Shown: positions 1-33,513 of the stretch, piece after piece | Layout: each line of letters starts with the position of its first letter | Position numbering within the stretch: position 1 is the first letter of the stretch | NCBI GenBank assembly: GCA_013361935.1 | Contig: JABFXC010000054.1 | Location: 678-64,677 of the forward strand | Reading direction: 5' to 3' | From: Gemmatimonadaceae bacterium | Lineage (GTDB): Bacteria > Gemmatimonadota > Gemmatimonadetes > Gemmatimonadales > Gemmatimonadaceae | DNA length: 64,000 nt | Position numbers and translations under genes: made by a program | The notes under the pieces: model-generated | Database searches by the model: none | What the model saw: the letters and a program-made list of their open reading frames with translations, nothing else | What the model was told of the DNA's origin: nothing

Positions 1-1294
1 CCCGCGGATACGACACGCGCACGGCGCGCACGCTCGGCGTCGCGCGCCCGTCGGAGCCGAGGGTGATCGCGAGGCGCAGGTAGCGCCCGGGACCGGAGAG
101 CACGAGGCGGTCGGGAACGTCGCTCGGGTAGCGCGGCGGGAGCGTGCCCGGCGTCTCGTCGCGCGCCTCGAAGACGATTCCCGGCGGCAGCACGTCCGGA
201 TCGGCGAGGAGCGCGGGATCGTCGGCGACGACCGTGCGCACCTTGAGCCAGCTTCCCTCGGGGAGATCGGCGTCGATGGTGATCCGGTGCCACTGCGCGC
301 CCGCGGCTCCGCCGTCGAGCGCGGCGCTCACCCAGCGCCCCGCGGTCGCGAACCCCGACGCGAGGCGGAGCCGCGCGAGCCGGATCGCGCGGTGCACCGC
401 GGCGAGCCGCACCCCGCCGTCGTGCGCGGTGCAGGGTGCGGCGCAGCTCCCGCCCCAGAAGCGCGCGACCTCGGCGCCGTAGATCCGCCGCAGCGCGTCG
501 AGCGCGAGCGCCCCCTCGCCGAGCCCCTGCACCAGCGCGGCGAGCGGGACGTCGCCTGACGGTGCGCCCCCGCGGTCGACGCGAATGAGCCGCGGGTGCG
601 ACGCGTCGGCGACGAGGATCGCGTCGCCGTCCACCATCACCGCGATCGGTGCCGGGTGCGCGGGCAGTCCGTCGGGCGTGCGCGGCACGAACGACGCACA
701 GCGCTCGTGCCTGACGTTCCAGACGCTGATCTCCCCCGCCTTGCGGTCGGCGACGTAGATCCAGCCGTCGGGGGCGACGGCGACGTCGACGGGCTCCTGC
801 AGCCCGGCGACGAGCACGTTCGCGACGTGGCCGTCCTCCGGATCGACGACGACGACGCGGCCGGCGAGCGCGTCGGCGACGTAGAGCAGCCCGCGCCGAT
901 CGAGCGCCAGGCCTGACGGGCGCATGAAGACGCCGGGCTCGATCACGAGCGGGCACTCGCTCCCGTCGCAGCGGCGGACGAGCAGGACGCCGCGCTCGTC
1001 GACGCGGTAGATCTCCCCGTCGAGATCGACGGCGAGCCCGGCGAGCGGCTCGACCGGCGCCGCCAGCGGCACGGGCATCAGCTCGAGCACGTGGCGCGCG
1101 TCGTCGTAGAAGACGCTCGGCTCGAGCCGCGGCAGCCGCCATTCGTCGACGCCGGGCGCGGCGTTGCGGCGCTCGAAGTCCGCGGCGTAGCGGAGGACGT
1201 ACCAGGCCGCGTCGTTCGCGTCGCGGGCGAAGGTCGCCCGCGCCTGGAGCATCCGCGCCGTCGCGGTCGGGTCGAGGAGCGCCGGAAGGGTCAT
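1..1294 (-). CDS. eCIS baseplate protein with NHL-type repeats (Afp12/Pvc12 position); C-terminus lies beyond the window edge
   Basis: Absent from the ORF track because there is no stop inside the window. Manual minus-strand translation from the ATG at 1292-1294 (1 nt after the stop of the upstream gene) reads MTLPALLDPTATARMLQARATFARDANDAAWYVLRYAADFERRN... and stays open to position 1. Repeated blocks GLALDRRGLLYVADALAGRVVVVD, PVDVAVAPDGWIYVADRKAGEISVWN and PIAVMVDGDAILVADASHPRLIRVD look like NHL repeats. The gene sits directly after the baseplate J-like gene. Confidence 0.7.
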   Translation of the reverse strand, partial: MTLPALLDPTATARMLQARATFARDANDAAWYVLRYAADFERRNAAPGVDEWRLPRLEPSVFYDDARHVLELMPVPLAAPVEPLAGLAVDLDGEIYRVDERGVLLVRRCDGSECPLVIEPGVFMRPSGLALDRRGLLYVADALAGRVVVVDPEDGHVANVLVAGLQEPVDVAVAPDGWIYVADRKAGEISVWNVRHERCASFVPRTPDGLPAHPAPIAVMVDGDAILVADASHPRLIRVDRGGAPSGDVPLAALVQGLGEGALALDALRRIYGAEVARFWGGSCAAPCTAHDGGVRLAAVHRAIRLARLRLASGFATAGRWVSAALDGGAAGAQWHRITIDADLPEGSWLKVRTVVADDPALLADPDVLPPGIVFEARDETPGTLPPRYPSDVPDRLVLSGPGRYLRLAITLGSDGRATPSVRAVRVSYPR

Positions 1295-1295
1295 C

Positions 1296-3725
1296 TCAGA
1301 CGACCGTGCCGAGCGTGAGCGAGGTCGCGTCGAAGGAGACGCACTCCTCGGGGCCGAGCAGCACGCGGTCCACCTGCCCGGACTGCGACGGGCAGAGCAC
1401 CAGTTGGCCCTGCCGCGGCGTCGCCGCGCTCGGCGTACGCGTGAACCACGCGGTGAGCGACTCGACGCGCTCCACCCCTTCGGTGCGCGTGACGAGCGCG
1501 ACGAGATCGGCGATGTGCACCTGCCCGCCGAAGGGGAAGCCGGCGCCGTCGTCGCCGCCGGTGAGCGGATGCAGCCACCGCGCGAGCCGGGCGCCGACGA
1601 GGTCCTGCAGCTTGCTCCGCGTGTACCCCGGGCGCGCCTGCACCGCGACCTGCACGTCGCAGAAGCGGCAGTACTGCGGCGGGATGACGTGCACCTCGGT
1701 CGTCACGAGCCGGTGCGCGTCGAGCCAGCGGCAGACGGCGCGGAGGAAGGAGCGCGTCGGCACCGGTTCGCTGCCCGGGAGGTCCGGCACGACGACGACG
1801 CTCACCGCGCCCGCCGCGACGCGCGGGTCGATGCCCAGCGGACCGTTAGGCACCGTCCCGCAGCGCATCGCCAGCGGCGGGGTCGCCGGCACCGGCGTGC
1901 CCGAGCCGGGCCCCGCGGCGATCGTCCGCGCGAGCGGCCGGCGAAGCGGGATCACCACCGCGCGCGCGACGCGCACTTCCGGCGTCTGGCTGGCGATCCA
2001 CTGGAAATCCTCCGCGGTGACCGCGCGGCTGCGGCTGGAGATCTCCTTGCGGACGCGCTCCTCCGCCTGCTCCAGCGTCTCGGCATCGCGGCCGCCGGTC
2101 GCGGGCGTGGGGTTCACGACGCCGGCCACGCCGGCGGCGCCGCTGTCGAGCACCGTGATCGCGCCGACGCCCACCTCGCCGGCGAGCCCGCCGCCCCAGC
2201 GATAGCGCAGCGCGACCACGTCACCCGTGCCCGGAACCAGGGGGATGATCCGTCCGTGCTCGCCGTCGCCGCTGGCGATCGCGCCCGCCTCGCGGTCCAG
2301 GGTGTAGACGCGGGCGAACGGGTCGGCGGCCTCGATCGCGTCGGTCTCGCTCCACTCCTCGAGCGGCGTCGCCGCGTCCACCGACTCCTGCACCGCGAGC
2401 TGCAGCGTCCCGGCGAGCACGTTGCGGTTGGCGAGCGCGAACTCCTGGCGCGGCCGGCCCGTCCCGCGGCCGAGCACCTCGTTGCGGACCGTCGTCGCGT
2501 TGGTCGCGTGCACCGCGTTCAGCGTCACCATGCGCACGCGCATCGCCGGGGTCGCCGCCGTGCCCGGCGGGAGCGCCACGCGGAGCCAGCAGTGCACGCG
2601 CGTGACGGCGCGCAGCGCCGGGTCCAGCGGATGCGCGACCGGAGGCTGCGTCGCCGCCGCCTGCGCCGCCGCCGCGTCGATCCCGTGCTGGATCACCTCG
2701 CGGTACTTCGTCTCGGTGAGCGTGAGCATCGGCGACAGTGGCTGCAGCTGGTCCTGCATCGCCGCGCCTAACGCGAGGCACGCCTGCAGCGGCGTCGTCG
2801 TGCCGGCGGCGCGCATCGGCGCCCAGCTCGCGTCGGGAATCGGCCCGACGGTCATCGGAACGCCGAAGCGCAGCGTTCCCGAGCGCGTGAATCGTGCGGT
2901 GGTGTCGTCGATGCGCCCGGAGATCTGACGCATCGCGCCGGCGGGCGCGTCGTAGTACGCGAGCCAGTCGATCGGCACCGGCGTCTCGCCGGCGGCGACG
3001 GCGGTGCCGCAGCGCTCGTCGGCGGCGAGGTCGGGACGCTCGTCGTCGTCGAAGGAGACCGAGAGCGTCACGCGCGCGCCGCGGAAGCCGGCGTCGGCGG
3101 CGAGGTTCGCGGCGAGCCCGATCCAGAGGTACCGCTGCGCGGCGCGCCCCACGAGCCGCACCGGATCGAGCGGGACGTCCTTGAGCTTCGGCGTCTTCCC
3201 GTCCCAGGTGACGGTGAGCCACTCGGTGTCGTTCGCCGGCACCTGCGGGTAGACCGCCGGCGTCTCGCGCCCGCTCTCCGTGGCGAGCACGTCGTGGATG
3301 AACGGGTTTTTCGTCGTCGCGAGCAGCACCGGCTCCGCGGGCACGACGTCGATCGCGTCGTCGGTCTCGTACGAGGGCGGCGGCGTCCCGACCTTCGCGC
3401 GGACGCGCGCGCCGGCCGCCAGCGTGTAGCCGGCGAGCGTGGTCGGATCGGTGAGCAGCAGCGCGAGCATCGTCGACGCGGCGTGCGCGGGCTGCAGCCG
3501 CACGCCGAGGATCTTGAGCAGCTCGACCTGGGCGCTCTCCGGCACGCGATTGAGCCGCCATCCCACCTGCTCGGCGAGGTACGCGAAAAGCTGGATGAGG
3601 GCGATCCCCGGATCGCTCGCGTTGCGGTCCGTCCACTCCGGCGCGTAGACCGCGATCCGGCGCTCGAGCTCGGCGACGGTGCGGTCGAAGGTGATGTCGT
3701 CCAGCTGCGGCAGCTCGATCGGCAT
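1296..3725 (-). CDS. Baseplate J / T4 gp6-like baseplate wedge protein (Afp11/Pvc11 equivalent)
   Basis: 809-aa ORF. The N-terminus MPIELPQLDDITFDRTVAELERRIAVYAPEWTDRNASDPGIALIQLFAYLAEQ is the typical opening of baseplate J family proteins. There is a 2-nt gap to the upstream gp25-like gene. Confidence 0.85.
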   Translation of the reverse strand: MPIELPQLDDITFDRTVAELERRIAVYAPEWTDRNASDPGIALIQLFAYLAEQVGWRLNRVPESAQVELLKILGVRLQPAHAASTMLALLLTDPTTLAGYTLAAGARVRAKVGTPPPSYETDDAIDVVPAEPVLLATTKNPFIHDVLATESGRETPAVYPQVPANDTEWLTVTWDGKTPKLKDVPLDPVRLVGRAAQRYLWIGLAANLAADAGFRGARVTLSVSFDDDERPDLAADERCGTAVAAGETPVPIDWLAYYDAPAGAMRQISGRIDDTTARFTRSGTLRFGVPMTVGPIPDASWAPMRAAGTTTPLQACLALGAAMQDQLQPLSPMLTLTETKYREVIQHGIDAAAAQAAATQPPVAHPLDPALRAVTRVHCWLRVALPPGTAATPAMRVRMVTLNAVHATNATTVRNEVLGRGTGRPRQEFALANRNVLAGTLQLAVQESVDAATPLEEWSETDAIEAADPFARVYTLDREAGAIASGDGEHGRIIPLVPGTGDVVALRYRWGGGLAGEVGVGAITVLDSGAAGVAGVVNPTPATGGRDAETLEQAEERVRKEISSRSRAVTAEDFQWIASQTPEVRVARAVVIPLRRPLARTIAAGPGSGTPVPATPPLAMRCGTVPNGPLGIDPRVAAGAVSVVVVPDLPGSEPVPTRSFLRAVCRWLDAHRLVTTEVHVIPPQYCRFCDVQVAVQARPGYTRSKLQDLVGARLARWLHPLTGGDDGAGFPFGGQVHIADLVALVTRTEGVERVESLTAWFTRTPSAATPRQGQLVLCPSQSGQVDRVLLGPEECVSFDATSLTLGTVV

Positions 3726-3727
3726 GG

Positions 3728-4147
3728 TCAGCCTCGGCCCTCGAGCAGATAGAAGGGGAAGACGCGGTTGTACGCCTCGTTCGTCACCTCGACCACGTAG
3801 TCGACGTGGACGAGGATCAGCTCCGGCGTCTCGTCGGATGCGACCGCGTCGACGCGCTCGAGGCGGATGCGCGGCTCCCAGTCGCTGAGCGCGCGCCGCA
3901 CCAGCTCGGCGATGCGCGAGCGCGTCGCCGGACCGTTCGGCTCGAACACGAGGTCGCGCACCCCCGCCCCGAACTCGGGGAGCATCACGCGCTCGCTCTG
4001 CGCGGTGAGCAGCACGATCTGGATCGCCTGCTCGATGTCCTCCTCGTAGCGCGCGTAGCGCAGCGATCCGCCCACGGGCTTCACGGGAAACGACCAGCCG
4101 ACGCCGAGATGCGCCTTCGGGTTGCGCTCGCCGGAGGGCGTCTTCAT
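3728..4147 (-). CDS. GPW/gp25-family baseplate protein (Afp9 equivalent)
   Basis: Last 139 codons of tracked ORF 3728..4894, starting MKTPSGERNPKAHLGVGWSFP. Contains LPEFGAGVRDLVFEP and SDWEPRI, typical of the gp25 lysozyme-like fold. ATGA overlap with the upstream spike gene. The remaining N-terminal part of the tracked ORF is Arg/Gly-rich shadow sequence. Confidence 0.85.
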   Translation of the reverse strand: MKTPSGERNPKAHLGVGWSFPVKPVGGSLRYARYEEDIEQAIQIVLLTAQSERVMLPEFGAGVRDLVFEPNGPATRSRIAELVRRALSDWEPRIRLERVDAVASDETPELILVHVDYVVEVTNEAYNRVFPFYLLEGRG

Positions 4148-4920
4148 ATCGCGACTCCGCCGGTGAACGGCGCCGGCGCCTCGTTCGGCGGCCGATGGCG
4201 GTGGAGCTTGTACGGCGTCCCGTCGATGATCGAGCTTCCCGCCGACGACATCATCGTGACGACGTTGCCGGTGATGGTGATCGTCGGCGCGCTGAGCTGG
4301 ATCGAGATCGACGACTCGATGGTCATCGCCCCCGGCTCCTGCATCGTGATCTGCGACGTCGGCGTCCGGATGCTGAGCTTCTGCCCGATGTCGTCGAGCT
4401 CGATGGTGCGCCCGCCGGCGCTCGCGAGGGTGACCTTGAAGCCGCCGACGGTGTCGTCGAGCTCGACGGAGTGCCCGTGGTTCGTGCGCAGCGTGATCTT
4501 GCCGCGGTTGGGCGCGTCGTCGAAGGTGAGCTCGTGGCCGCTCCGCGAGACGATGGTGCGGACGTCGTTGTCCGGCGACTGACGCGCTTGGGCGGGAGCC
4601 GTCGCGTCGCGGTTCCACACCGCGCCGAGGATGATCGGGATGTTCGCCTCCCCGGACTGGAAGCCGACGACGACCTCGTCGCCCTTCTCGGGAAAGAAGT
4701 GCATCCCGCGGTTGGCGCCGGCCATCGGCATCATCACCCGCGCCGGCGCCGAGCGGTCGTCGTCGTCCTGGCCGCTCATGCCGAGGAAGTGCAGCCGGTA
4801 GGTGCCGTCGTCCTCGATGGACACGACGCGCGCCGTGGCCAGCCCGCTCACCGGACGCTGGCGATCCTCCGCCGCGCGCGGGGCGAAGATGCACTCGAGG
4901 ATGTTGTCGAGCTCACTCAT
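4144..4920 (-). CDS. Baseplate spike, gpV/VgrG-like (Afp8 position)
   Basis: 258 aa. OB-fold region GLATARVVSIEDDGTYRLHF...PARVMMPMAGANRGMHFFPEKGDEVVVGFQSGEANIPIILGAVWN is followed by short beta-helix-like repeats (TFDDAPN, VELDDTVGG, IELDDIGQ). 4-nt overlaps with both neighbours. Confidence 0.85.
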   Translation of the reverse strand: MSELDNILECIFAPRAAEDRQRPVSGLATARVVSIEDDGTYRLHFLGMSGQDDDDRSAPARVMMPMAGANRGMHFFPEKGDEVVVGFQSGEANIPIILGAVWNRDATAPAQARQSPDNDVRTIVSRSGHELTFDDAPNRGKITLRTNHGHSVELDDTVGGFKVTLASAGGRTIELDDIGQKLSIRTPTSQITMQEPGAMTIESSISIQLSAPTITITGNVVTMMSSAGSSIIDGTPYKLHRHRPPNEAPAPFTGGVAI

Positions 4921-6323
4921 CGGGCGGATCCCTCGCGATAGGGCGGCAGCTCCATCCCCGGGCGCGACGCGGAGAAGCGCGTTCGCAGCCCGTCGGAGCC
5001 GAGCGTGTGCACGGTGCGGGTGACGTAGTAGAAGCCGTTGAAGGGCGGCCGATAGCCGCGGATCTCCACGTGCCGGCCCGGGCGCAGCCGCGGAAGCCCG
5101 ATCGCCGTCCCCTCGATGGTCAGGAGCTCGCGCGCCTTCTTCCGCAGCAGCGTCTGGGCGTACCAGGTGGCCCGCGTGTCGTCGAGGTTCGAGACGTTAG
5201 GCGGGCCGGCGCGATTCTCGCGCCCGGGAAGGAAGTGCGCGCGGACGAGCGGACCGGGAGTGAGGGTGCCGTCCACCGCCGGATCGACGTGGAGCTCGTC
5301 CTGCACGATCGCGCCGAGCGCGACGCCGCGGACTTCGCGCGGCGTGTGCGGATCGCGGTGCCGGCCGCGCACCTCGGCGGCGGTGAACTGGTCGACGACC
5401 TTCAGCGTCGGCGCGAACTCGAGCAGGCTCTGCTCGCGGTCGAGGCGGAAGATCACGTCCTGCCGCTCGATCGGGTTGGCGCGGCCGCGGTACGGCTCGA
5501 AGCGGAGCACCAGCGGCGCGTTGGTGCGGTCGAGGCTCGCGAACTCGAGGCAGACCTCGTAGTCGAGACGCTCGGCGAGCTTCTGGATGAACTCGAGGTA
5601 CGACTGTCCCTTCTGCACCGCGTCGTTCAGCCCCTGCGAGTCGTTCGTGGCGAAGGAGGGATGATCGACGAGCGGATCGGCGGGGGAGGAGATTGGATAG
5701 TGCGCGCGCTGGAGGACGCGGCGCACCATGCTCGTCTCGCTCAGCCGGTCGAGCTCGATGCGGCGCTCGGTGCGGTCCTTGAGCGTGTTGAGGTCGTCCT
5801 CGCCGGAGATCACGACCTGCGCGCCCTGGCCAGCGGCGAAGGTGAAGCGCATGTCGGTGATCGGGCCGGCGACCATCGGCACCCAGCGCTGCGGGTCGGC
5901 GGTGACGGGCGCGGCGGAGGCGGCGCGGTCGGGCCAGTAGCGGAAATCGACGCGCAGCCGGTCGCCAAAGCCGAGCACCGCGAAGTCGTCGTACTTGAAG
6001 CGCGGCCAGTACGGCGTGCGCCGCGGGTCGAGCCGCTCGCGGGCGTCGATGGGGCCGGCGCTGCCGCCCGTCGGATCATCGGAGGAGCGGTCCGCCGCGG
6101 TCGAGAGATACGCGTTGTTGAGGGTGAGCGAGTACGTGGCGAGCCCGCTGTTCGTGAGCGTCACCTCGGCGCGGACGACGTCGGCGTGGATGTCGGGCGG
6201 GAGGACGTCGCCGGCCTCGCCCTGGGGCTGGAGGGTGGCCGCGAGCTTGGCGAGGCGGACGCCGGGGGCGAAGTAGGCGCTCCCCGGACGCGGACCGTTA
6301 GGCGCTGGCGCGGTGACGGTCAT
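4917..6323 (-). CDS. Baseplate hub, phage late control D / gp27-like
   Basis: 468 aa. The C-terminus LLTIEGTAIGLPRLRPGRHVEIRGYRPPFNGFYYVTRTVHTLGSDGLRTRFSA resembles gpD-type hub proteins. Translationally coupled on both sides. Confidence 0.7.
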   Translation of the reverse strand: MTVTAPAPNGPRPGSAYFAPGVRLAKLAATLQPQGEAGDVLPPDIHADVVRAEVTLTNSGLATYSLTLNNAYLSTAADRSSDDPTGGSAGPIDARERLDPRRTPYWPRFKYDDFAVLGFGDRLRVDFRYWPDRAASAAPVTADPQRWVPMVAGPITDMRFTFAAGQGAQVVISGEDDLNTLKDRTERRIELDRLSETSMVRRVLQRAHYPISSPADPLVDHPSFATNDSQGLNDAVQKGQSYLEFIQKLAERLDYEVCLEFASLDRTNAPLVLRFEPYRGRANPIERQDVIFRLDREQSLLEFAPTLKVVDQFTAAEVRGRHRDPHTPREVRGVALGAIVQDELHVDPAVDGTLTPGPLVRAHFLPGRENRAGPPNVSNLDDTRATWYAQTLLRKKARELLTIEGTAIGLPRLRPGRHVEIRGYRPPFNGFYYVTRTVHTLGSDGLRTRFSASRPGMELPPYREGSAR

Positions 6324-6523
6324 ACGCGGCCCCGGCGCTGCAGCTCGCGCAGCTCGTCGTGGAGGACGTCGAGCACCAGCGAGCGAAGGCGCGCGCGCGA
6401 TCCCGGGTCGTTCTCGAGCAGGCGCAGCATCGCCTCGGCGCCGGCGGTGCCGGGCGCGCCGACGGGCGGCTCGTCGCCCGGGACGAGCTCCACTTCGCTG
6501 TGCACGCGATCGATCTGGAGCAT
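6320..6523 (-). CDS. Small conserved-position hypothetical protein of the eCIS operon (67 aa)
   Basis: MLQIDRVHSEVELVPGDEPPVGAPGTAGAEAMLRLLENDPGSRARLRSLVLDVLHDELRELQRRGRV. Fits exactly between the LysM and hub genes, with a 4-nt overlap downstream. No recognisable motif. Confidence 0.5.
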   Translation of the reverse strand: MLQIDRVHSEVELVPGDEPPVGAPGTAGAEAMLRLLENDPGSRARLRSLVLDVLHDELRELQRRGRV

Positions 6524-6533
6524 GGCGGCGTCC

Positions 6534-7178
6534 TCAGAGCGCGGGGATCCGCAGCGCGGTCCCCGGTGGCACGAACCGCGGGCGCTCGATGTCGTTCTCG
6601 CGGGCGATCGCCCGCCAGAGCCGCGGGTCGCCGTACGCCTCGCGCGCGAGCTGGGCGAGAGTCTCTCCCTCGCGCAGCACCCGCACGCGCGTGCGGTCGG
6701 GGCTGTGCAGCGCCATCCCGCGCAGCTGGACCTCCGGCGCCTGGTACGACTTGAACGTCGTCGTGACGCGCGCGCGGAGGACGGCCCCCGTCTCGCTGAA
6801 GAGCGTATAGCGCTCGCGCAGCTGCGTGACGACGCCGGTGAAGTGCACGTCGCCCCAGGTGAACAGACAGACCGGCGGCGCGTGCAGCTCGCTCTGCACC
6901 GTGACGAAGGTGCGCAGCGCGGCGAGCCGTCCCTCGACCGTCTTGTCGGGGGCCGCGCTCTGCCGCTTGTCCGTGCCGTCGAGGAAGAGCTCGAGCGTCA
7001 GCGTCTGCGCGTCGCCGCGCACGAACTGGAGCAGCGGCATCTGCAGCCCCGGCACCTGCAGCTCGGCGTAGGTGACGCCGCGGTCGACACCGTACTCCGT
7101 CGGGTTGAACTGCACCTCCACCGCCTCGGGCGCGGGGGAGACCGAGATGTTCTGGAGGGTGGCGAGGGCGAGGGTCAT
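6534..7178 (-). CDS. Tube-fold protein with C-terminal LysM domain (tube initiator-like, Afp7/Pvc7-like)
   Basis: 214 aa. N-terminal tube-like region FNPTEYGVDRGVTYAELQVPGLQMPLLQFVRG. C-terminal LysM-like VRVLREGETLAQLAREAYGDPRLWRAIARENDIERPRFVPPGTALRIP. Confidence 0.8.
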   Translation of the reverse strand: MTLALATLQNISVSPAPEAVEVQFNPTEYGVDRGVTYAELQVPGLQMPLLQFVRGDAQTLTLELFLDGTDKRQSAAPDKTVEGRLAALRTFVTVQSELHAPPVCLFTWGDVHFTGVVTQLRERYTLFSETGAVLRARVTTTFKSYQAPEVQLRGMALHSPDRTRVRVLREGETLAQLAREAYGDPRLWRAIARENDIERPRFVPPGTALRIPAL

Positions 7179-7180
7179 CG

Positions 7181-7789
7181 TCAGATCCCCAGCGCGTCCA
7201 TCGCCGCGCCAGCGCCGCCGGGCAGCATCGACGCGCCGACGCGATACAGCCCCTCGTGCGCCAGCTCCAGTGTCTCGATCGCGATCTCACTCGACTTCGC
7301 GTTGAGGCCGGGGCCGTGCATCTTCTCCGGCAGCGCGTTCCGGCAGAACCACACCGCGATCGGCAGCCGGTCGAGCACGGGAAGGCCGAACGAGGTCGGA
7401 CCGCCGGCGAGCGCGCTGATCCCCGTGCCGCGGTCGGTGAGCATGACGAGCACGTTCTTGCGCGCCGGGTCGGCCGTCTTGTAGAGCGTCGCGTAGTACC
7501 AGTCCCAGAGGTCGGGGTTCAGCGTCACCCCCCGCTTGAGAACGAGGTTGGGATACTTCCCCCACTTCACGAACTTTCGCGGCGCGGTGTTCGACCCGCC
7601 CTGCCGGTACTCCTCGGTCTCCATCTCGGCGTCGAGCCCCGAGACCTCGGAGAAGGTGCCGACGATCGCCGCCTTGGCGACGCCTAACGCCGCGCCGGCG
7701 ACGTCGGCGGCGCCCATGCTCGACAGCGGCTTGGCGTCGAGCATCATGACCGTGAAGTCGAAGACAGGGACGGGGTTGACGAGGGTCAT
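7181..7789 (-). CDS. Tail tube protein 2 (T4 gp19-like, Afp5 position)
   Basis: Last 202 codons of tracked ORF 7181..8515, starting MTLVNPVPVFDFTVMMLDAKPL. Motifs FSEVSGLDAEMETEEYRQGG and KYPNLVLKRG parallel tube protein 1. 2-nt gap to the upstream sheath gene. Confidence 0.85.
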   Translation of the reverse strand: MTLVNPVPVFDFTVMMLDAKPLSSMGAADVAGAALGVAKAAIVGTFSEVSGLDAEMETEEYRQGGSNTAPRKFVKWGKYPNLVLKRGVTLNPDLWDWYYATLYKTADPARKNVLVMLTDRGTGISALAGGPTSFGLPVLDRLPIAVWFCRNALPEKMHGPGLNAKSSEIAIETLELAHEGLYRVGASMLPGGAGAAMDALGI

Positions 7790-7791
7790 CG

Positions 7792-9633
7792 CTACTCCAG
7801 GACCTCGATCACGCCCTCGCTCCGGCCGAGGCGGAAGACGAGGAACTCTCCCGGCGCGGCGACCGCGACCCCGAGCTCGACGACGAAGCGCCCGGCGGCG
7901 ATCGACTCCGGCGGGTTCACGCTCGCGTCGCAGCGCACGTAGAACGCTTCCTCGGGGCGCTCGCCGCGCAGCACGCCCGCCTCGAAGAGCGGGACGAGCA
8001 CGCCGAGCGCGATCGTCGCGACGTGCATCCAGAGCGCCGGCGTGTTCGGCTCGAAGACCAGCGGCTCGAGCGCCGCGCGCATCCGCAGCTCGACGGCGGT
8101 GAGCACCCGCCGCACGGGCACGAAGCGCAGCCAGGTGTCGGTGGAGAGCGTGCGCGCGCCGAACAGCTGCACGCCGTAGCCTGGGTACGGACGCATCACG
8201 TTCACCGACGCGCCGGCGATCCCGCTCGCCCCCGGCTCGGGCGTGTAGAGCGCGGCGTGCGCGGCGTCGTCGACCGGCGCAGCGACGCCGACCACCTGCC
8301 GCAGCGTCTCGTTCGCCGGAGCGACGCCCGGCCCGCGCGCGAGGTCGCGCCGCGCGAGGACCCCCGCCGCGTACGCCGCCGGCGGCACGGTGAGCGTCGG
8401 CGCGCCGATCATCTCCTGCGTCAGCAGCCAGGGCCAGTACATCGCCCCCGCCGACATCTCGAGCGTGTCGGCGAACCCCTCGAGCTGGACGAGCCGGTCG
8501 AACTGCGCGATCCACTGCCGCGCCTCCGGCGCGCCCGGCGGGACGTAGCGGCCCGTCGCCGCGTCGGGCATCTCGGGGACGGCGAGCAGGAGCAGCATCC
8601 GCCAGCGCGTCTCGACGCAGCGCGCGAGGAGTGTCCGCTGCGTGGCGAAGAGAGGGCTCATCGCGCCGCCGGCGTAGAGCGGCATCGAGTCGAACAGCGG
8701 CAGCGTCACCGGCTCGCCGGCGACGTCGACCACCGCGCCGGAGGGCACGACGTCATCGCAGGGGATGAAGCACCCCTCGCGCTCCGGCGGCGCGAGCGTC
8801 ACCTGCCGCACCGGACGGTCGACGCGGCGCGCGTGGAGGTCGGGGACGTCGCAGGCGGTGACCTCGTCGAGGAGGAGCAGCCGCTCGAGCCCCGTCGCCT
8901 CGCGCTCCGGCACGCCGGGCACGCCGGCCATCTCGGCGCGCGCGCGATCGAGCTCCACGGCGTCGTCGAAGCGCGGGCGGCGCACGGTCTCCACCCAGCA
9001 GCGGCGGCCGCCGTTCGCGAAGTACGCGCGCACCGCCGAGCCGAGAAACGTTCCGTCGTCGCGCGGCTCGCCGAAGGCGAGCAGGTAGTCGCGCCAGTCG
9101 TCGCAGCGCGCCGCGTCCAGTGCCGGGAGCACCGTCATGCCTAACGCGCCGGCGTCGCGGCGGTAGACGATGTCCGCGACCCGCGCCCACGCGCGGTGCA
9201 TCCCCGGCATCGGGTTGACGCGGAGCTCGAGCTGCGCGTCGTCCGGTGCGCGCTCGGTCCCCGTCGCCGCCGCGTTCCCGCGCACGACCATCAGCTCGGC
9301 GAACGGTCCGTCCTGCTCGGCGGCGACGAGCGCGAAGACGATGCTCTCGCCGGCGAGCATCGGGATCCAGAGCGCGCCGCTCGACACGGCGAGGTTCCGC
9401 GTCTCCGGAACGAGCACGCGCGCGCCGCCGAGCACGAGCTGGAATCCGGCGACGTCGGCGCGGAAGTCGTGGCCCGTCGCCGGGCTTCCGGTCAGCGCCG
9501 ACGGCGTCGTCCCGTCGCGCACCCGCGGCTCGAGCCCGACGAAGCCGACGACGTCCGTGCGCGCGACGACCACCGGCGCCACGCGCGGACGCCGCTCGAC
9601 GTAGACCCCCGGGACGCGGTAGGCGACTCCCAT
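7792..9633 (-). CDS. Contractile tail sheath protein 2
   Basis: 613 aa. N-terminus MGVAYRVPGVYVERRPRVAPVVVARTDVVGFVG and C-terminal RFVPVRRVLTAVELRMRAALEPLVFEPNTPALW...GEFLVFRLG are sheath-family hallmarks. Confidence 0.85.
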   Translation of the reverse strand: MGVAYRVPGVYVERRPRVAPVVVARTDVVGFVGLEPRVRDGTTPSALTGSPATGHDFRADVAGFQLVLGGARVLVPETRNLAVSSGALWIPMLAGESIVFALVAAEQDGPFAELMVVRGNAAATGTERAPDDAQLELRVNPMPGMHRAWARVADIVYRRDAGALGMTVLPALDAARCDDWRDYLLAFGEPRDDGTFLGSAVRAYFANGGRRCWVETVRRPRFDDAVELDRARAEMAGVPGVPEREATGLERLLLLDEVTACDVPDLHARRVDRPVRQVTLAPPEREGCFIPCDDVVPSGAVVDVAGEPVTLPLFDSMPLYAGGAMSPLFATQRTLLARCVETRWRMLLLLAVPEMPDAATGRYVPPGAPEARQWIAQFDRLVQLEGFADTLEMSAGAMYWPWLLTQEMIGAPTLTVPPAAYAAGVLARRDLARGPGVAPANETLRQVVGVAAPVDDAAHAALYTPEPGASGIAGASVNVMRPYPGYGVQLFGARTLSTDTWLRFVPVRRVLTAVELRMRAALEPLVFEPNTPALWMHVATIALGVLVPLFEAGVLRGERPEEAFYVRCDASVNPPESIAAGRFVVELGVAVAAPGEFLVFRLGRSEGVIEVLE

Positions 9634-9639
9634 CGCGCG

Positions 9640-10083
9640 CTACTCGATGTCCAGCCGGTCGTAGGCCAGTTCCATCGTCTCGATCGCGATCTCGTTGCCT
9701 TTCGCGTTCAGCGATGGACCGGTGAGCTTCGTGCACCACGCGTTGGTCAGCTTCCACTTGAGCACCGCGTTGTGCTGGTCGTCGAGGAGGTTGATGGTGA
9801 CGTTGCGCGTCGGCGGGAACGCCGTCCCGCCGTCGCGCACCTCCTTGCGCCATTCCCAGAGGACGAGCGAGCCGGTGATCCCGCGCTTGCAGGTGCAGTT
9901 CGGGTACTTCTCGATGCCGGGGAGCTTGCGCACCGTGTTCATCGCGTCGGCGCCCTCGCGGTACTCGATCGGCGTGTTCTCGCTGTCGAGCCCCGAGACT
10001 TCCTGGAAGGCGGCGATCTGCGCCCCGTCGATCTCGACGGTGAAGTTGAAGGCGCTGTACGGATTCGGTCGTGTGATGGCCAT
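9640..10083 (-). CDS. Tail tube protein 1 (T4 gp19-like, Afp1 position)
   Basis: 147 aa. MAITRPNPYSAFNFTVEIDGAQIAAFQEVSGLDSENTPIEYREGAD...KYPNCTCKRGI is the canonical tube signature. Confidence 0.9.
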   Translation of the reverse strand: MAITRPNPYSAFNFTVEIDGAQIAAFQEVSGLDSENTPIEYREGADAMNTVRKLPGIEKYPNCTCKRGITGSLVLWEWRKEVRDGGTAFPPTRNVTINLLDDQHNAVLKWKLTNAWCTKLTGPSLNAKGNEIAIETMELAYDRLDIE

Positions 10084-10107
10084 GGGCGGCGCTCGGGAGG
10101 GCGGGGG

Positions 10108-12222
10108 TCAGGTCTGGGTCGCGAAGCCGGTGATCTGCTCGATGCGGAAGATGACGAACTCGGCCGGACGCACGATCGCGACGCCGATCTCACAGATGAG
10201 CCTGCCGTTCTGGACGTCGTCGACCGTCATCGTCGACTCGTCGCAGCGCACGCGGTACGCGTCCTCGGGGCGGCGGCCGAAGAGCGCGCCGTCGCGCCAC
10301 TGCGTGTGGAGGAAGGCGCTCACGCTGTCGACGACGCGGCTCCAGGTGTCCGGAGCGTTAGGCTCGAAGACCACCCACTGCGTGCCGCGGTCGATCGACG
10401 CCTCGAGAAAGATCAGGAAGCGGCGGACGTTGATGTAGCGGAACTCGGGATCGCTGGAGAGCGTGCGGCCGCCCCAGACCCGGATGCCGCGCCCCTCGAA
10501 GCGGCGGATGACGTCGACGCCGCGCGGATTGAGCACGTCCTGCTCGCCCGTCGTCACGTACGCGCGCAGCCCCGTCACCCCGCGCACGACCTCGTTCGCC
10601 GGCGCCTTCCACACCCCGCGGTCGTTGTCGACGCGCGCGTAGATGCCGACGACGTGCCCCGACGGAGGCAGCCGCAGCGTGTCGTCGCCGACGGGCACCT
10701 CGACCCACGGCGTGTAGTACGCCGCGTACGACGAGTCGTAGAGATTGCGCGCGGCGAGCAGCGCGTTCACCGACTGCGGGTCCGATGGCGCGTCGAGCAC
10801 GGCGAAGCGGTAGCGCAGCCGCTCGGCCTGCGCGATCAGCGCCGTCTGCACCAGCGCCTGCGTCTCGCCCGGCGCGGCGAGGATGCGCACGTCGTCGATG
10901 TCGGCGAGCGCCTGCAGCCCGGTGCGCAGCCCCGGCCCGCCGTCGACGCCGACGATGTGCGTCCGCGCGCCGACCACCGGTGCGCCATCGGCGCCGCTTC
11001 CCGGCGCCGGACCGCTCGCCTGGCCGTTGAGGTTCACCGGCATCACCGCCTCGGTCGCCGGATCTTCCGCCGAGCCGCCGAACGCCCACGGCGGCTCGAC
11101 CCAGACGAGGCTCGAGCGCTGGTTGATCACCGTCGAGTAGTGGCGGCGCCTGACGGCCGGCGCGGCGTTCCCGGTCCAGGCGAGCCCGCGGAACACCTCC
11201 GTCGTCCGCGACGCGGTGTCCTCGACGGTGACGTCGATCTCGCGCACGATGACGACGCCGGCGACCGTGACGTTGTTCACCGGGGCGCTCACGCGGACCC
11301 GGCTCCCGGGCAGGATCTCGCGCACCGTCAGCTGCGTCACGACCATCGCGCCGCCGTGGACGAGCATGATCGACGCGCCGGGATAGAGCGACGTCGTCGA
11401 CTGCAGCTGGATGATGTCCGTCGCCACGGCGATCGCCGCCGTCACCGCGACCGGAGGCCGGTCGGCGGGAACGACGGTGATCATCAGCCGGTTGCCCCAG
11501 TCGCCCGGGCTCCGCGCGTAGAAGCGCGGACCGGCCGCCGGAGTGACGGGCGCGGTCGCGCTCGAGAATCGCACGATCACCCGGTCGGGCTCGAGCAGCG
11601 TCGGCGTCGCGCCGGCGCCGACGGTCACCGTCACCGCGCCCGTCGCGAAGTCGACCGCCGTGATCCCCATCGCCGTGAGCGCGGTGGGACCGGCGCTGAT
11701 CGGGGCGCCGTTCGCGCCGGTGATCGACACCGTCGTCGTGCCGGCGGGCGTCAGCGGCGCGACGGGGCCGGTCGGGGCGATGCCGACGAGCGAGGAGAGG
11801 AAGAGAACGTTGGACCCGCTCCGCACCTCCACGGTGCTCCGCAGCCGCGTCACCGAGCCCTGGTTGAGCTGGTGCACGGCGAAGGCGAACCCCGGCCGCA
11901 GCGCGCGCGCGATGTAGGCGCGCCGTCCGCCGTTGTCGAAGAAGGCGCGTACCGCGTGGCCGAGGAAGCGGTCGGGGCCCGGCGCATCGGCGGGCGCGCC
12001 GAAGGTCCGCTGGTAGGCGCCGAAGTTCGTGACGAGCAGCGGCGCGTCGTCCGGCGTGATCGCGAAGCCGCCGCCGGCGCCCACCGGGGGCAGCACCCCC
12101 GGCGCCGGCCCGCGGTCCGATTCCCCGACGAAGCCGGCCGTGCTCGTGCTCACTCCCTCGATCGCCTTCAGCCGGGCGGGGATCTCCTCGATGAATACGC
12201 CTGGGGATAGATACTCGGGCAT
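10108..12222 (-). CDS. Contractile tail sheath protein 1 (long form, 704 aa)
   Basis: MPEYLSPGVFIEEIPARLKAIEGVSTSTAGFVGESDRGP at the N-terminus. C-terminal INVRRFLIFLEASIDRGTQWVVFEPNAPDTW...AEFVIFRIEQ. Carries a large Thr/Ala/Val-rich central insertion. Confidence 0.9.
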   Translation of the reverse strand: MPEYLSPGVFIEEIPARLKAIEGVSTSTAGFVGESDRGPAPGVLPPVGAGGGFAITPDDAPLLVTNFGAYQRTFGAPADAPGPDRFLGHAVRAFFDNGGRRAYIARALRPGFAFAVHQLNQGSVTRLRSTVEVRSGSNVLFLSSLVGIAPTGPVAPLTPAGTTTVSITGANGAPISAGPTALTAMGITAVDFATGAVTVTVGAGATPTLLEPDRVIVRFSSATAPVTPAAGPRFYARSPGDWGNRLMITVVPADRPPVAVTAAIAVATDIIQLQSTTSLYPGASIMLVHGGAMVVTQLTVREILPGSRVRVSAPVNNVTVAGVVIVREIDVTVEDTASRTTEVFRGLAWTGNAAPAVRRRHYSTVINQRSSLVWVEPPWAFGGSAEDPATEAVMPVNLNGQASGPAPGSGADGAPVVGARTHIVGVDGGPGLRTGLQALADIDDVRILAAPGETQALVQTALIAQAERLRYRFAVLDAPSDPQSVNALLAARNLYDSSYAAYYTPWVEVPVGDDTLRLPPSGHVVGIYARVDNDRGVWKAPANEVVRGVTGLRAYVTTGEQDVLNPRGVDVIRRFEGRGIRVWGGRTLSSDPEFRYINVRRFLIFLEASIDRGTQWVVFEPNAPDTWSRVVDSVSAFLHTQWRDGALFGRRPEDAYRVRCDESTMTVDDVQNGRLICEIGVAIVRPAEFVIFRIEQITGFATQT

Positions 12223-12232
12223 TGCCCCTCCC

Positions 12233-12949
12233 TCACGGGATCGTGATGAACAGCGTGGATGGCTGGCCGATCGTGACCGGCAGCGGGAACACGGGTGACG
12301 CCGGCGCGACGAGCGCGGCGAACGCGGGCGGCGCGCGGAGCTCGACGCCGATCGACGCCGCGGCGCGGATCGCCGACGCCGGCGGGGGCGAGAGCGTCCG
12401 CACGTTAGGCAGCCGCAGGAGAAAGTCGCCGCCGGCGTCGGTGTACCCGTACGGCGCGCCGGCGGGGATCGGCGGCTCGCCGAGCGTGACGCGGTAGCCG
12501 GCCGCGGGCGCGCCCGCCGCGGTGCGGACGTTCCCGATCACCGCGGTCTCCCCCACCGGCAGGGCGAGCTGGCGCGTCGGCCAGAGACGGCGCGTGACGA
12601 TGAAGTCGCTCCGCACGGGAAAGAGGCCGGCGATCGGCCGCGGCAGCACCACCGCCGCCGGCTCGCGGTCGGCGTACTCACCGCCCGGCGCGCTGACGAC
12701 GACGTCCACCGCGCCGACCGGAGGAAGCGTCGCGTTCGACGCGAACAGCCGGTACGTCCCGTCGGCGGCGCGCCGCGCCGTCCATGGAAGCCGCGGCATC
12801 TCCGGGTACGGCGGGGCGATCGTCTCGACGCGCACGTCGAGGGGAAGCGTGATGGGCGCGCCGGTGAACGCGTCGACGAAGCGGAACGCCACCGCGAGGC
12901 GGTGGCGCACCCACGGATGCGAGATCGGCGCGAAGCCCGGCGCGGTCAT
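12233..12949 (-). CDS. Hypothetical eCIS-associated protein with carboxypeptidase-regulatory-like beta-sandwich
   Basis: Last 238 codons of tracked ORF 12233..13957, starting MTAPGFAPISHPWVRHRL. The segment GNVRTAAGAPAAGYRVTLGEPPIPAGAPYGYTDAGGDFLLRLPNV resembles a CarboxypepD_reg-like domain. ATGA overlap with the DUF4255 gene. Confidence 0.6.
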   Translation of the reverse strand: MTAPGFAPISHPWVRHRLAVAFRFVDAFTGAPITLPLDVRVETIAPPYPEMPRLPWTARRAADGTYRLFASNATLPPVGAVDVVVSAPGGEYADREPAAVVLPRPIAGLFPVRSDFIVTRRLWPTRQLALPVGETAVIGNVRTAAGAPAAGYRVTLGEPPIPAGAPYGYTDAGGDFLLRLPNVRTLSPPPASAIRAAASIGVELRAPPAFAALVAPASPVFPLPVTIGQPSTLFITIP

Positions 12950-13515
12950 GCGGGCACTCCGATCCGCGCGTCGATCACCGGCGCCGGCACCGGTCCCGGC
13001 GGCGGCGAGATGCCGACCACGCGCGCCATGTACGTGAGCGAGAGACGATACGGCACGTCGGCCGCGTCCCAGATGCGGTAGTGATCGTCGAGGCCCAGCG
13101 TCTCGAGCACGAGCTGCACGCCCTCGCCCGCCTCCCACGCGCTCCCGACGAGGTTCGCCGGCCCGAGCTCGGCGCGGTCGTACAGCACCTGCAGCACACG
13201 GCCGAGGATCAGCAGCTCCGCCGCGGTCTCCCGCGCCCACGCGGTGATCAGGTAGCACAGCTCGAGCGGGAGCGGCTGCCGCTGCACGCGGCCGTCGGGA
13301 AGGGTCCGCCTCCGCTCGTTGCGCATCTGCGGGTTGATCGCCACGCGGTAGAGGAAGACGGTGAGCGCGGGACGATCGGGGTTCACGTAGTCCCCGAAAT
13401 CGTCGGGCGTCGCGGCGACGATGCGCAGCGGGTCCACCATCGCCGCCGGGATCCCCGCACGCAGCAGTGTGAGGATCGTCTCGGTCATGTCGCGGAGGAC
13501 GTCGGCGCTCGCCAT
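12946..13515 (-). CDS. DUF4255 / Pvc16 N-terminal domain protein (tail terminator/cap, eCIS hallmark)
   Basis: 189 aa. MASADVLRDMTETILTLLRAGIP...PALTVFLYRVAINPQMRN...LPLELCYLITAW matches the conserved DUF4255 pattern. First structural gene of the operon. Confidence 0.8.
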   Translation of the reverse strand: MASADVLRDMTETILTLLRAGIPAAMVDPLRIVAATPDDFGDYVNPDRPALTVFLYRVAINPQMRNERRRTLPDGRVQRQPLPLELCYLITAWARETAAELLILGRVLQVLYDRAELGPANLVGSAWEAGEGVQLVLETLGLDDHYRIWDAADVPYRLSLTYMARVVGISPPPGPVPAPVIDARIGVPA

Positions 13516-13518
13516 CGC

Positions 13519-13920
13519 TCAGTCCGTACCGCGCTCGACCGGCGCGAGCCGCGAGAGGATCGCCGCGCCGAGTCCGGCCGGCGTGACGTCGGAGACGCTG
13601 CGATGCGTCGGCGTGAGCTCGTGCAGCCGGGCGCTCGCGCCGCGCTCGCTGACGAGGAGGATGCGCGTCCGCGGCGACTGGAAGAGGGCGCGGACGATTT
13701 CGTCGCGCGCGGTCGCGTCGCCGTCGCCGAGGGCACCGAGTATCACACCGTCCGCCCGCGTGCGCGCGACGATCGCGCCGATGTCGTCGTGGCCCTGGTC
13801 CTCCTCGACGTCGACGCGCGGGTGTCGCTCGAGCGCGTCGCGGAGCAGGTCGCGCAGCAGGCGCGGCATGCGCGCCAGCACGATGCGGATTCTGGTCGGA
13901 AGCTCGGCGGGAAGCGTCAC
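13519..13920 (-). CDS. Stand-alone degenerate receiver-like protein
   Basis: 133 aa with a CheY-like alternation (IRIVLARMP..., ADGVILGA..., RILLVSE) but lacking the acidic DD pair and the conserved Lys. Its stop is only 3 nt from the DUF4255 start, so it is probably co-transcribed. Confidence 0.55.
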   Translation of the reverse strand: MTLPAELPTRIRIVLARMPRLLRDLLRDALERHPRVDVEEDQGHDDIGAIVARTRADGVILGALGDGDATARDEIVRALFQSPRTRILLVSERGASARLHELTPTHRSVSDVTPAGLGAAILSRLAPVERGTD

Positions 13921-14014
13921 GCCCGAGAAGTGCGGCCGACCGCTCCTCGTCCGCCATGCACCTTCCGGTGCATCATGGATGGAGGCGGGATCTACACCCT
14001 CGCCTCCATCCCGC

Positions 14015-14749
14015 TCAGACGCGCGGCGATTCTTCCGGGGTCGAGCGCGCCGCGAGCGTGCGCGGCGCGTGGCGGCGCAGCTGGGCCACCGCCTCGGCGC
14101 GGCCGGAGACGCCGAGCTTGTCGAGGATGTTGTGGACGTGCTGCTTCACCGTCGCCAGCTCGATCCCGAGCCGCGCGGCGATCGCCTTGTTCGAGAGCCC
14201 GCCGTCGAGCAGCTCGGCGATGTCGCGCTCGCGCGCGGTGAGCGCGAGTGGGAGCTGGGCGGCGGCGAGCGGCCGGCGGCCTAGCTGGCGGAAGAGCGGT
14301 GCGGCCATGCACGACGAGCAGACCGTGCCCCCGTCGGCGACGCACTCGACCGCGCTCACCAGGTCGGCGAGCGATCCGTGGCTCGGCACGTAGCCGTCGA
14401 CGCCCGCCTCGGCGCAGGCGAGGACGTTCGCCGCGACCTCGATCAGCGCGTAGGCGACGACGCGCACCGCCGGCGCCTCGCGCACCGCGCGGCGGACGAG
14501 CGAGAGGGCGTCGGGCATGGCCATGTCGAGCACCGCGACGTCGACGCCGCCCGCGCGCATCCGCTCGAGCGCGGCGTCCGCGTTGTCCGCCGACGCGATC
14601 ACCTGCACGCAGCCGCGTCCGCTCAGGCTCTGCGCCAGCCCCTCGCAGTAGAGCCTAACGTCCGACACGACCAGCACGGCGATCGCGCGGGGACGAGCCT
14701 TGGCCGGCTCGAAGCCGCTCGCCGATCCCGACGAGGTGATGGGCGACAT
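14015..14749 (-). CDS. NarL/LuxR-family response regulator with atypical receiver domain
   Basis: 244 aa. LuxR HTH: LTARERDIAELLDGGLSNKAIAARLGIELATVKQHVHNILDKLGV. The receiver retains VAVLDMAMPD, but DD is SD (LVVSD), the T/S position is Ala (VVAYAL), and the Lys position reads GYVPSH. Confidence 0.85.
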   Translation of the reverse strand: MSPITSSGSASGFEPAKARPRAIAVLVVSDVRLYCEGLAQSLSGRGCVQVIASADNADAALERMRAGGVDVAVLDMAMPDALSLVRRAVREAPAVRVVAYALIEVAANVLACAEAGVDGYVPSHGSLADLVSAVECVADGGTVCSSCMAAPLFRQLGRRPLAAAQLPLALTARERDIAELLDGGLSNKAIAARLGIELATVKQHVHNILDKLGVSGRAEAVAQLRRHAPRTLAARSTPEESPRV

Positions 14750-14941
14750 GATGTCACCGCGAATCCATTGTCACGAGCGCCGGCCCCGCGACGGGCCGGC
14801 ATGCGATCGGCAATCTGCGTGATTTGTCGCACAAGGGAAGAGGGAACTTCGCGCCCGGTTAACCGTCGCTAATAAACAACTGAGGGGCGGCGGAGGTCCG
14901 CGTGCCCAGCGCGGCGGCCTAACGTTCCACCGACGGTTTGC

Positions 14942-33485: not shown

Positions 33486-33513
33486 CGCGGAGGCAAGCGC
33501 CTTTCAACCGCAG

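Follow-up and report, generated by a model that had tools for sequence, protein, structure and literature searches.

We analysed a 64,000-nt stretch of contig JABFXC010000054.1, hereafter called the window. Its left part very probably encodes a contractile injection system (CIS), a complete machine that resembles a phage tail, and the gene content points to the extracellular CIS (eCIS) superfamily, lineage II, subtype IIb. The identity of the cluster is supported by family and Protein Data Bank (PDB) assignments of its proteins, by operon-like packing of the genes, by eCIS markers, and by the lack of phage and type VI secretion system (T6SS) genes. Three eCIS marker domains, Pvc16_N, CIS_tube, and eCIS_core, co-occur in the locus. 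The host is an uncultured soil Gemmatimonadaceae bacterium and the cluster is chromosomal; a Gemmatimonadaceae metagenome-assembled genome (MAG) encodes a "hypothetical protein" with 100% identity to the main sheath protein.

An earlier reading of the sequence (the original prediction) had described thirteen co-directional minus-strand genes in positions 1–13515 as an Afp/PVC-like structural operon. Genes were called from lists of open reading frames (ORFs) and third-position GC (GC3), in a window whose G+C content is 70–76%. All thirteen genes were recovered in the predicted order, and they fill positions 1–13515 with nearly no DNA between them. Their junctions comprise four 4-nt ATGA overlaps and gaps of 1, 2, 2, 2, 6, 10, 10, and 24 nt, assuming that the second tube gene starts at 7789. 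The predicted limits were too narrow. Three more genes on the same strand lie upstream of the cap gene and encode a 133-amino-acid (aa) ORF, a LuxR-type response regulator, and a 1008-aa DUF4157 protein, and the cluster continues past the left edge. Thus, the CIS locus extends from beyond the left window edge to about 17968. The genes past this point are of the usual chromosomal kind and include those for MsrA, a radical-SAM enzyme, an ion channel, and a sigma factor.

Profile hidden Markov model searches recovered the sheath, tube, gp25, J, and DUF4255 assignments above their cut-offs, as had been predicted. All genes of the locus are given below by their minus-strand coordinates. The cap gene (12946..13515) encodes a 189-aa tail terminator of the Cis16/Afp16 type (Pfam Pvc16_N/DUF4255, 124.4 bits, E 5.5e-36). 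The main sheath Cis2 (704 aa, 10108..12222) matched Pfam Phage_sheath_1 and Phage_sheath_1C, and its PDB matches were 9ezm (8.7e-107), 8bky (4.2e-91), and Afp3 (1.3e-50). It is followed by the inner tube Cis1 (147 aa, 9640..10083; Pfam Phage_T4_gp19, 151 bits). Between the cap and the sheath lies a 238-aa protein (12233..12949) that had been labelled CarboxypepD_reg-like. The gene is present, but the family label comes down to one partial match of 23.3 bits, below the cut-off of 32.3. We describe it as a conserved accessory protein; full-length alignment to the product of the equally placed gene of an Acidobacteriota MAG gave 44% identity. The 238-aa protein had no match in PDB, NCBIfam, or PHROGs, and its single-sequence AlphaFold2 model gave no usable fold (predicted local distance difference test score (pLDDT) 37).

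A second sheath and tube pair follows the first. The 613-aa protein (7792..9633) fell below the Pfam cut-off (E about 4e-4). It is nevertheless a true sheath paralogue, as had been claimed, on the basis of a phmmer match to PDB 8bl4 (1.9e-40), a PHROG tail sheath match (2.8e-35), 36% identity to the 704-aa sheath over 219 aa, and common N-terminal motifs. The paralogue probably forms one or more specialised sheath layers. The 202-aa protein (7181..7789) is a second member of the tube family (Phage_T4_gp19, 105 bits), resembling a Cis1b/Cis5 tube initiator. It was 34% identical to the 147-aa tube protein, and its PDB matches were CIS tube, Afp5, and Pvc5 proteins. Short direct DNA repeats, 2313 nt apart (2405 nt for one pair), connect the two sheath/tube pairs in 7792–12222. 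These repeats are the trace of an old tandem duplication retained in relatives of other phyla.

The next gene (6534..7178) encodes a 214-aa tube-to-spike adaptor of the Cis7/Afp7 type with a LysM-like C-terminus. The CIS_tube part of this assignment was borne out (117 bits). The LysM part was detected only through full-length alignment to the solved LysM-containing Cis7 proteins 9rce_H, All3321 (7b5h), 9gtp_P, and 7aeb_M and through an NCBIfam match at 0.009. A 67-aa ORF (6320..6523) occupies the position of the Afp6/Cis6 spike plug. It was placed by position, and had no family match in Pfam, NCBIfam, or PHROGs; its counterparts in relatives are ORFs of 60–61 aa with 36–39% identity by tblastn.

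The central spike is encoded by two genes. The 258-aa product of the second (4144..4920) is a gp5/gpV-like spike (Phage_base_V, 53.5 bits) that aligned to residues about 370–570 of the contiguous Cis8/VgrG chains 7b5h_AJ, 9rce_F, and 7aef_q. It follows that Afp8/VgrG is split here into gp27-like and gp5-like genes, of which this is the C-terminal half. The N-terminal half would be the 468-aa gp27/gpD-like hub (4917..6323). The position of the hub fits the original prediction, but its direct matches were all weak: Phage_GPD at 23.9 bits (cut-off 30.1), VgrG_rel at 1.4e-8, and the tail protein family phrog_52 at 6.5e-9. The hub had no sequence match in PDB.

The baseplate genes lie at the left end of the window. 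Cis9 (139 aa, 3728..4147) is a gp25-like wedge protein and sheath initiator (GPW_gp25, 86 bits). A single gp6/J-like baseplate protein, Cis11 (809 aa, 1296..3725), matched Baseplate_J (42.5 bits) and TIGR02243 (286.6 bits); its sole PDB match was Streptomyces Cis11 (9gtp_1K, 6.4e-47). The last gene (1..1294) is cut by the window edge. It encodes the N-terminal 431 aa of a Cis12-type baseplate protein, comprising an NHL beta-propeller (48 bits).

We extended the locus to the left using metagenome contigs, 17 of which encode a J-like protein identical to the window copy. The longest, L001, differs from the window by 2 mismatches over 13.7 kb and adds 6356 bp to the left of it. In full, the NHL protein has 688 aa, and its C-terminal Tail_P2_I/Cis12 core lies outside the window. 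The full protein matched Tail_P2_I, TIGR02242, PDB 9gtp_E, and CIS12_fam (7e-44). Downstream of Cis12, L001 encodes paralogous Cis13-like proteins of 422 aa (Cis13a) and 1225 aa (Cis13b), both of which matched the N-terminal domain of CIS13_fam (2.3e-11 and 5.7e-6, respectively). The CIS12_fam and CIS13_fam matches are at the level of domains and far below the equivalog cut-offs of the models. Fibre genes had been expected beyond the left edge, and the two fibre-like Cis13 genes answer to this expectation.

Cis13a had no PDB sequence match. The core of Cis13b contains many cysteines that are invariant across phyla, in motifs such as CEPC, DCCGND, and ECP..PRPVHGD.C. AlphaFold2 prediction for the Cis13b family (P0121, 45 sequences) gave a mixed model with pLDDT 65 and a predicted template modelling score of 0.36. 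Cis12, Cis13a, Cis13b, and the remaining structural proteins showed no conserved transmembrane helix in a hydrophobicity scan; at about residue 911, Cis13b has a hydrophobic stretch, but this contains charged residues and is not conserved. In both Cis13-like proteins (L001 14532–19487), the Cys/Gly-rich clusters CGCGCGGGC and CDCGGTKGGCGCGGKCGGSCGGDCGCGG lie just N-terminal of the conserved domain. Cis13b also has a low-complexity region that is long and rich in proline.

The gene in the cis14 position is cut on L001 after 197 aa. The truncated ORF is homologous to a 569-aa gene of a relative by pairwise BLAST, and it matched a gene of 535–605 aa in related loci; a protein search with the 197-aa ORF gave no match, and the gene had no family match in NCBIfam or PHROGs. 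The longer contigs L001, L002, L004, and L005 all stop within a few hundred bases of one another inside this gene (L001 19491–20081). This shared break points to repeated or strain-variable sequence at the 3' end of the cluster, its presumed cargo end. An ATPase and a tape measure had also been expected beyond the left edge. No AAA+ ATPase of the Afp15 type was found in the 64-kb window or in the 6.4-kb left extension, and the ATPase is predicted only through the synteny of relatives. The gene in the afp14 position is there, but it has no family match.

Homologues of the sheath at 50–60% identity were numerous in soil metagenomes, and a 3.0-Mb Acidobacteriota MAG contig has the same gene order from the cap to Cis12. 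A Cis13b profile recovered 79 loci from GTDB genomes. By tblastn, we compared the present locus with 25 related loci, several of which are short fragments. The order cis7, small ORF, cis8N, cis8C, cis9, cis11, cis12, cis13a, cis13b, and the 535–605-aa gene was kept as far as the contigs reach. In most of the longer related loci, a DUF4157 protein comes next. About ten show an AAA+ ATPase, which is on the opposite strand in all but two. The related loci belong to Acidobacteriota, Planctomycetota, Verrucomicrobiota, Myxococcota, Proteobacteria, and Actinomycetota, in addition to Gemmatimonadaceae, and almost all are from MAGs. eCIS genes in Gemmatimonadetes have already been mentioned in a review (PMC8910223).

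The expected PAAR gene was not found. A Burkholderia PAAR query, which found the Halogeometricum PAAR protein at 7.6e-30 as a positive control, gave no tblastn match at E<=1e-4 in L001 or the 25 related loci, that is, in any of the 26 loci. Neither of our two PAAR queries matched the window at E<=0.1, and the operon has no room for such a gene.

We also examined whether the gene content could be that of a phage tail or of a T6SS. A defective prophage tail or an R-type tailocin would kill related bacteria by depolarisation and would deliver no cargo. The sheath, tube, gp25, J, gpI, gpV, and gpD families are common to P2- and T4-like tails, and PHROG tail families matched the sheath paralogue and the hub. 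The locus nevertheless contains the CIS markers Pvc16_N, CIS_tube with LysM, and eCIS_core/DUF4157. In agreement with the original prediction, Pfam searches of the called ORFs of the window, a few of which have no family, detected no capsid, portal, terminase, integrase, or lysis gene. The 6.4-kb left extension contained no phage head, lysis, integration, or T6SS genes either, and neither capsid nor terminase genes appeared in the syntenic relatives, so that the outcome proposed beforehand as the sign of a prophage was not observed. A scan of the window for transfer RNA genes found none, and an Rfam scan gave no match. PHROGs contained no match for Cis13a, Cis13b, the cis14-position gene, or the DUF4157, 238-aa, 67-aa, and 133-aa proteins. 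The relatives also have an AAA+ ATPase and DUF4157 proteins, and the composition of the locus is native to its host. This gene content largely refutes a prophage tail or tailocin, which we regard as very unlikely.

A canonical T6SS would account for the VgrG-like protein, for gp25 (TssE-like), and for the tube (Hcp-like). The same Pfam searches of the window ORFs, however, found no TssB/TssC, ClpV, TssJLM membrane-complex, or TssA/F/G/K gene. The sheath is a single chain of the phage type, and the locus also encodes a Pvc16 cap and a J-like protein. Gene content refutes this reading, and its probability is close to nil.

The PDB scores of the sheath and the J-like protein placed the system in lineage II rather than lineage I. 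The sheath scored 361 bits against 9EZM and 309 and 303 bits against the Streptomyces sheaths, compared with 165–176 bits against Afp3, the Anabaena thylakoid-anchored CIS, and AlgoCIS. The Afp/PVC-like label of the original prediction (Afp and PVC belong to subtype Ia) was replaced by lineage II with IIb gene content, the sheath scoring 176 bits against Afp3 and 361 bits against 9ezm. According to the gene-content rules that Chen et al. (PMC6899500) set out for six subtypes, a split afp8 occurs in IIa, IIb, and IIc, a single afp11 in Ia, Ib, IIb, and IId, and divergent afp12/afp13 in IIa and IIb. By the same rules, the absence of PAAR is specific to IIb, and within lineage II, afp6 is found only in IIb. 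The present locus has a split afp8, a single afp11, no PAAR, and divergent afp12/afp13, and it was filed under IIb on these four features. There is one J-like gene and no second copy in the 6.4-kb extension; the related loci show one gene in the afp11 position, where copy number was not counted. The bioinformatic class IIb of dbeCIS (PMC6899500) shares the same four features, and the small ORF here corresponds to its Afp6 by position only. Sheath identities to IIa, IId, and other plasmid-borne references were all 47–54% within the conserved C-terminal domain, too similar to tell the subtypes apart. Our literature searches found no experimentally characterised IIb system.

The closest solved sheath is that of the T6SS-like CIS of Halogeometricum borinquense (IIa, 9EZM, PMC11566945), at 54% identity over the C-terminal 270 aa. 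Both systems have a DUF4255 cap, DUF4157 proteins, a split spike, and a Cis12-like protein, and the AAA ATPase was seen here only in relatives. The Halogeometricum system has two Afp11 proteins, PAAR, DUF6760, one sheath, and a link to a six-helix membrane protein. In the locus described here, by comparison, Afp11 is single, PAAR is missing, the sheath and tube genes come as two pairs, and Cis13 is present as two paralogues. A transmembrane anchor protein was not seen; homology to the Halogeometricum anchor was not tested. The Burkholderia THE68 plasmid locus, like the Halogeometricum plasmid, has two afp11 genes, PAAR, and DUF6760, and DUF6760 was not among the Pfam matches of the operon genes. 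Membership in clade IIa was rejected on the single afp11, the lack of PAAR, and the lack of a transmembrane protein.

The cytoplasmic CIS of Streptomyces coelicolor (IId, 8BKY, 9GTP, PMC12237407) provided the second-best sheath and the only solved Cis11 match, and its Cis7 (LysM) and Cis12 core are homologous to those described here. It differs in having a contiguous Cis8, a short Cis12 of 190 aa, no fibre-like genes, and the membrane protein CisA. Membership in clade IId was also rejected, as the spike is split, Cis12 is 688 aa long with an NHL domain, and two Cis13-like genes follow Cis12.

Afp of Serratia entomophila and PVC of Photorhabdus (Ia) share the parts list, the cap, sheath, tube, and baseplate architecture, and the multiple sheath and tube paralogues. 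They differ in their contiguous Afp8, PAAR, adenovirus-like Afp13 fibres, and gene order, the cap gene coming first here. The Anabaena thylakoid-anchored CIS and AlgoCIS of Algoriphagus (Ib) gave PDB matches to Cis7, Cis8C, and the tube, and the NCBIfam CIS12 and CIS13 models match the two proteins downstream of Cis11. Anabaena Cis13 has a transmembrane helix, and the Cis11 of that system has cage and extension domains, whereas we found no conserved transmembrane helix. Cis13b is set apart from the two Ib systems by a core of invariant cysteines of its own and by a large C-terminal region for which no structural match was found.

The linear plasmid of Rhodococcus opacus strain 9 (NZ_CP095404.2), which is annotated and has not been studied, carries the same layout with two sheaths, a split spike, and no PAAR. 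Its gene order is DUF4255, a hypothetical protein, sheath, tube, second sheath, tube, Cis7, a small ORF, split VgrG, gp25, a single J, Cis12, a Cis13a-like protein, and the ATPase. It differs in having DUF4157 and HEAT-repeat genes in the middle of the operon and an extra 552-aa gene between gpV and gp25. In addition, its ATPase is on the same strand, and there is no full-length Cis13b.

The two sheath/tube pairs, the split spike without PAAR, the NHL-bearing Cis12, and the Cis13 paralogues with a cysteine core might together mark a separate class of CIS, one with no experimental studies so far. We put this forward tentatively and consider it rather unlikely. As in its nearest solved relatives, such a class could, for instance, be bound to the cell or fire internally instead of acting as free extracellular particles, with the Cis13b and NHL modules taking the place of transmembrane anchors.

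A particle model was drawn by analogy with solved CIS homologues (PMC12237407, PMC8894136). The identities of the parts and their conserved gene order are observed; the roles in assembly, the cargo, and the regulation are those suggested by solved homologues or by the gene neighbourhood. The split trimeric hub and spike, comprising the 468-aa gp27-like and 258-aa gp5-like proteins, would form the centre. Wedges of gp25 (Cis9), the one J-like Cis11, and the NHL-bearing Cis12 would surround it, with gp25 tying the first sheath layer to the wedges and the two Cis13-like proteins at the baseplate periphery. Cis7 (LysM) and the 202-aa tube paralogue would ring the hub and spike and nucleate the 147-aa tube. 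The 704-aa sheath would polymerise around the tube, the 613-aa paralogue would occupy one or more specialised layers, as in Afp and PVC, and a Pvc16/Cis16 hexamer would cap the distal end. After a trigger at the baseplate, the sheath would contract and drive the tube, spike, and cargo through a membrane. The likeliest cargo would be the adjacent DUF4157 protein.

The mode of action of such particles is not reliably predictable from sequence (PMC12998442). Extracellular action is the leading option, with about even chances in our judgement. The fibre-like Cis13 paralogues and the NHL propeller of Cis12 look like binding modules, and no conserved transmembrane anchor was found. The same machine could instead be retained by the cell, firing from the membrane as in Halogeometricum or in the cytoplasm under stress as in Streptomyces and Roseiflexus, and the outcome would be contact-dependent killing or regulated cell death. 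We consider this a substantial alternative of somewhat less than even probability. The best PDB sheath match is the membrane-bound haloarchaeal 9ezm, followed by Streptomyces 8bky and 8bl4, and the only solved relative of Cis11 is Streptomyces 9gtp. Pfam scans of the window revealed no lysis cassette near the operon, and in Anabaena, the Cis12/Cis13 extensions are membrane anchors, not target binders (PMC8894136). Cell retention is, however, at odds with the lack of a conserved transmembrane helix in the structural proteins, with a gene content unlike that of IIa (two Afp11, PAAR, DUF6760) and IId (contiguous Cis8, short Cis12), and with the elaborate Cis13b and NHL propeller.

Several points weigh against an extracellular system of subtype IIb as the reading of this locus. 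Among solved structures, both the closest sheaths and the one match to Cis11 belong to systems that do not act outside the cell, those of Halogeometricum and Streptomyces. The Cis13-like proteins contained no detectable fibre domain of the Afp13 type, and a Foldseek search of PDB with the Cis13b model returned nothing better than E=0.07, with generic beta-sandwiches only. The assignment to subtype IIb was made by gene content and is provisional. The hub (468 aa) and the Afp6-like protein (67 aa) were called from weak matches or from position. Every contig of the organism ends before the ATPase and the 3' end of the cluster, so that the ATPase is predicted from relatives. Expression of the cluster is presumed.

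The original prediction further held that the locus is a long-resident one and not a recent import, on the strength of 8 copies of an octamer in 1–13515. The count was exact. The octamer, GCCTAACG, occurs 28 times in the window (13 on the plus and 15 on the minus strand) against about 1 expected, and none of 100 shuffled sequences reached 28. Its sites include 1844, 2766, 5195, 6296, 7682, 9139, 10356, 12403, 14653, 14917, 14940, and 16556, and continue to 63324. The octamer is not palindromic and its flanks are not conserved. Variants with a single mismatch at positions 1–3, 6, 7, or 8 had 0–2 occurrences each. The window has 33 CTAAC pentamers, of which 28 fall within GCCTAACG. Copies within genes are read as CCT-AAC or TTA-GGC, codons expected to be rare at the local GC3. 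In 1.49 Mb of other high-GC loci, the frequency of the octamer is about 80 times lower, and the homologous loci of other MAGs are almost devoid of it. Its density was 0.72 per kb in the CIS region and 0.34 per kb elsewhere in the window. At about 1 copy per 2.3 kb overall, the octamer is reminiscent of DNA-uptake sequences or other signals spread across a genome; a literature search for GCCTAACG returned primers only.

Tetranucleotide usage in 1–17968 correlated with that in the rest of the window at r=0.965, as compared with 0.976 between the two halves of the rest and 0.22–0.93 for homologous loci of other MAGs. Because its tetranucleotide usage matches the host and the octamer occurs at or above host density, the cluster is compositionally native, and long residence is a reasonable conclusion.

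The gene farthest upstream (14942..17968) encodes the 1008-aa DUF4157 protein (Pfam eCIS_core, 109 bits against a cut-off of 22), which has the zincin motif HELVH (HExxH) at residue 206. DUF4157 is a core, toxin-associated domain of eCISs and a known companion of eCIS operons (PMC8213781). From its position beside the operon and its domain, the protein is probably a cargo or effector. Its C-terminal part of about 200 aa (about 790–990) has Gly/Ala/Val-rich hydrophobic stretches with many GxxxG spacings, and the DUF4157 proteins of relatives each have one or two strongly hydrophobic segments. The Gly-rich composition of this C-terminus suggests a putative membrane-inserting toxin domain.

The 244-aa response regulator (14015..14749) comprises a receiver domain (Response_reg, 43.9 bits) and a LuxR/GerE helix-turn-helix domain (GerE, 55.1 bits). 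GerE regulators have been reported beside eCIS operons (PMC8213781), and this LuxR-type regulator probably controls expression of the operon. A GC-rich hairpin, GGGATGGAGGCG...CGCCTCCATCC, lies directly after its stop codon (about 13977–14014). The 133-aa ORF (13519..13920) stops 3 nt before the cap gene and is possibly the first gene of the operon. It was called as a gene on the identical contigs too, had no Pfam or PHROG match, and was not homologous to the ORF in the same position of a relative. By eye, it resembles a receiver domain without the usual phospho-acceptor aspartate. A scan of 13400–18200 for sigma-70 promoters found none.

Elsewhere in the window, a block of lower GC content (0.65–0.67) on the minus strand (53300–58226) encodes a Fic/DOC protein, a 1048-aa protein with PLD-nuclease, ResIII/helicase, and DUF3427 domains, and a NUDIX hydrolase. 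The block is possibly an island of defence or toxin genes. Several large ORFs whose GC3 is like that of coding sequence have no Pfam family; they lie at 50613–53186, 49730–50620, 37726–39558, and 33018–33503, all on the minus strand, and one of them is 857 aa long.

CISs are being engineered as protein-delivery devices, and their known modes of action (extracellular, membrane-anchored, and cytoplasmic) keep growing in number. The finding described here is the correct annotation of a known type of system and is unsurprising to a specialist. The locus illustrates cleanly, with conserved synteny, a lineage II layout, IIb by gene content, for which we found no characterised representative. This layout occurs widely among uncultured Acidobacteriota, Gemmatimonadota, Planctomycetota, Verrucomicrobiota, and Myxococcota; nearly all loci in which we found it belong to uncultured soil bacteria, of at least seven phyla. 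Comparison of these loci yields the complete set of parts, among them two fibre-like families not studied so far and a probable DUF4157 cargo, and it predicts what lies past the end of the present contigs. The plasmid of R. opacus strain 9 provides a cultured carrier of the same layout.

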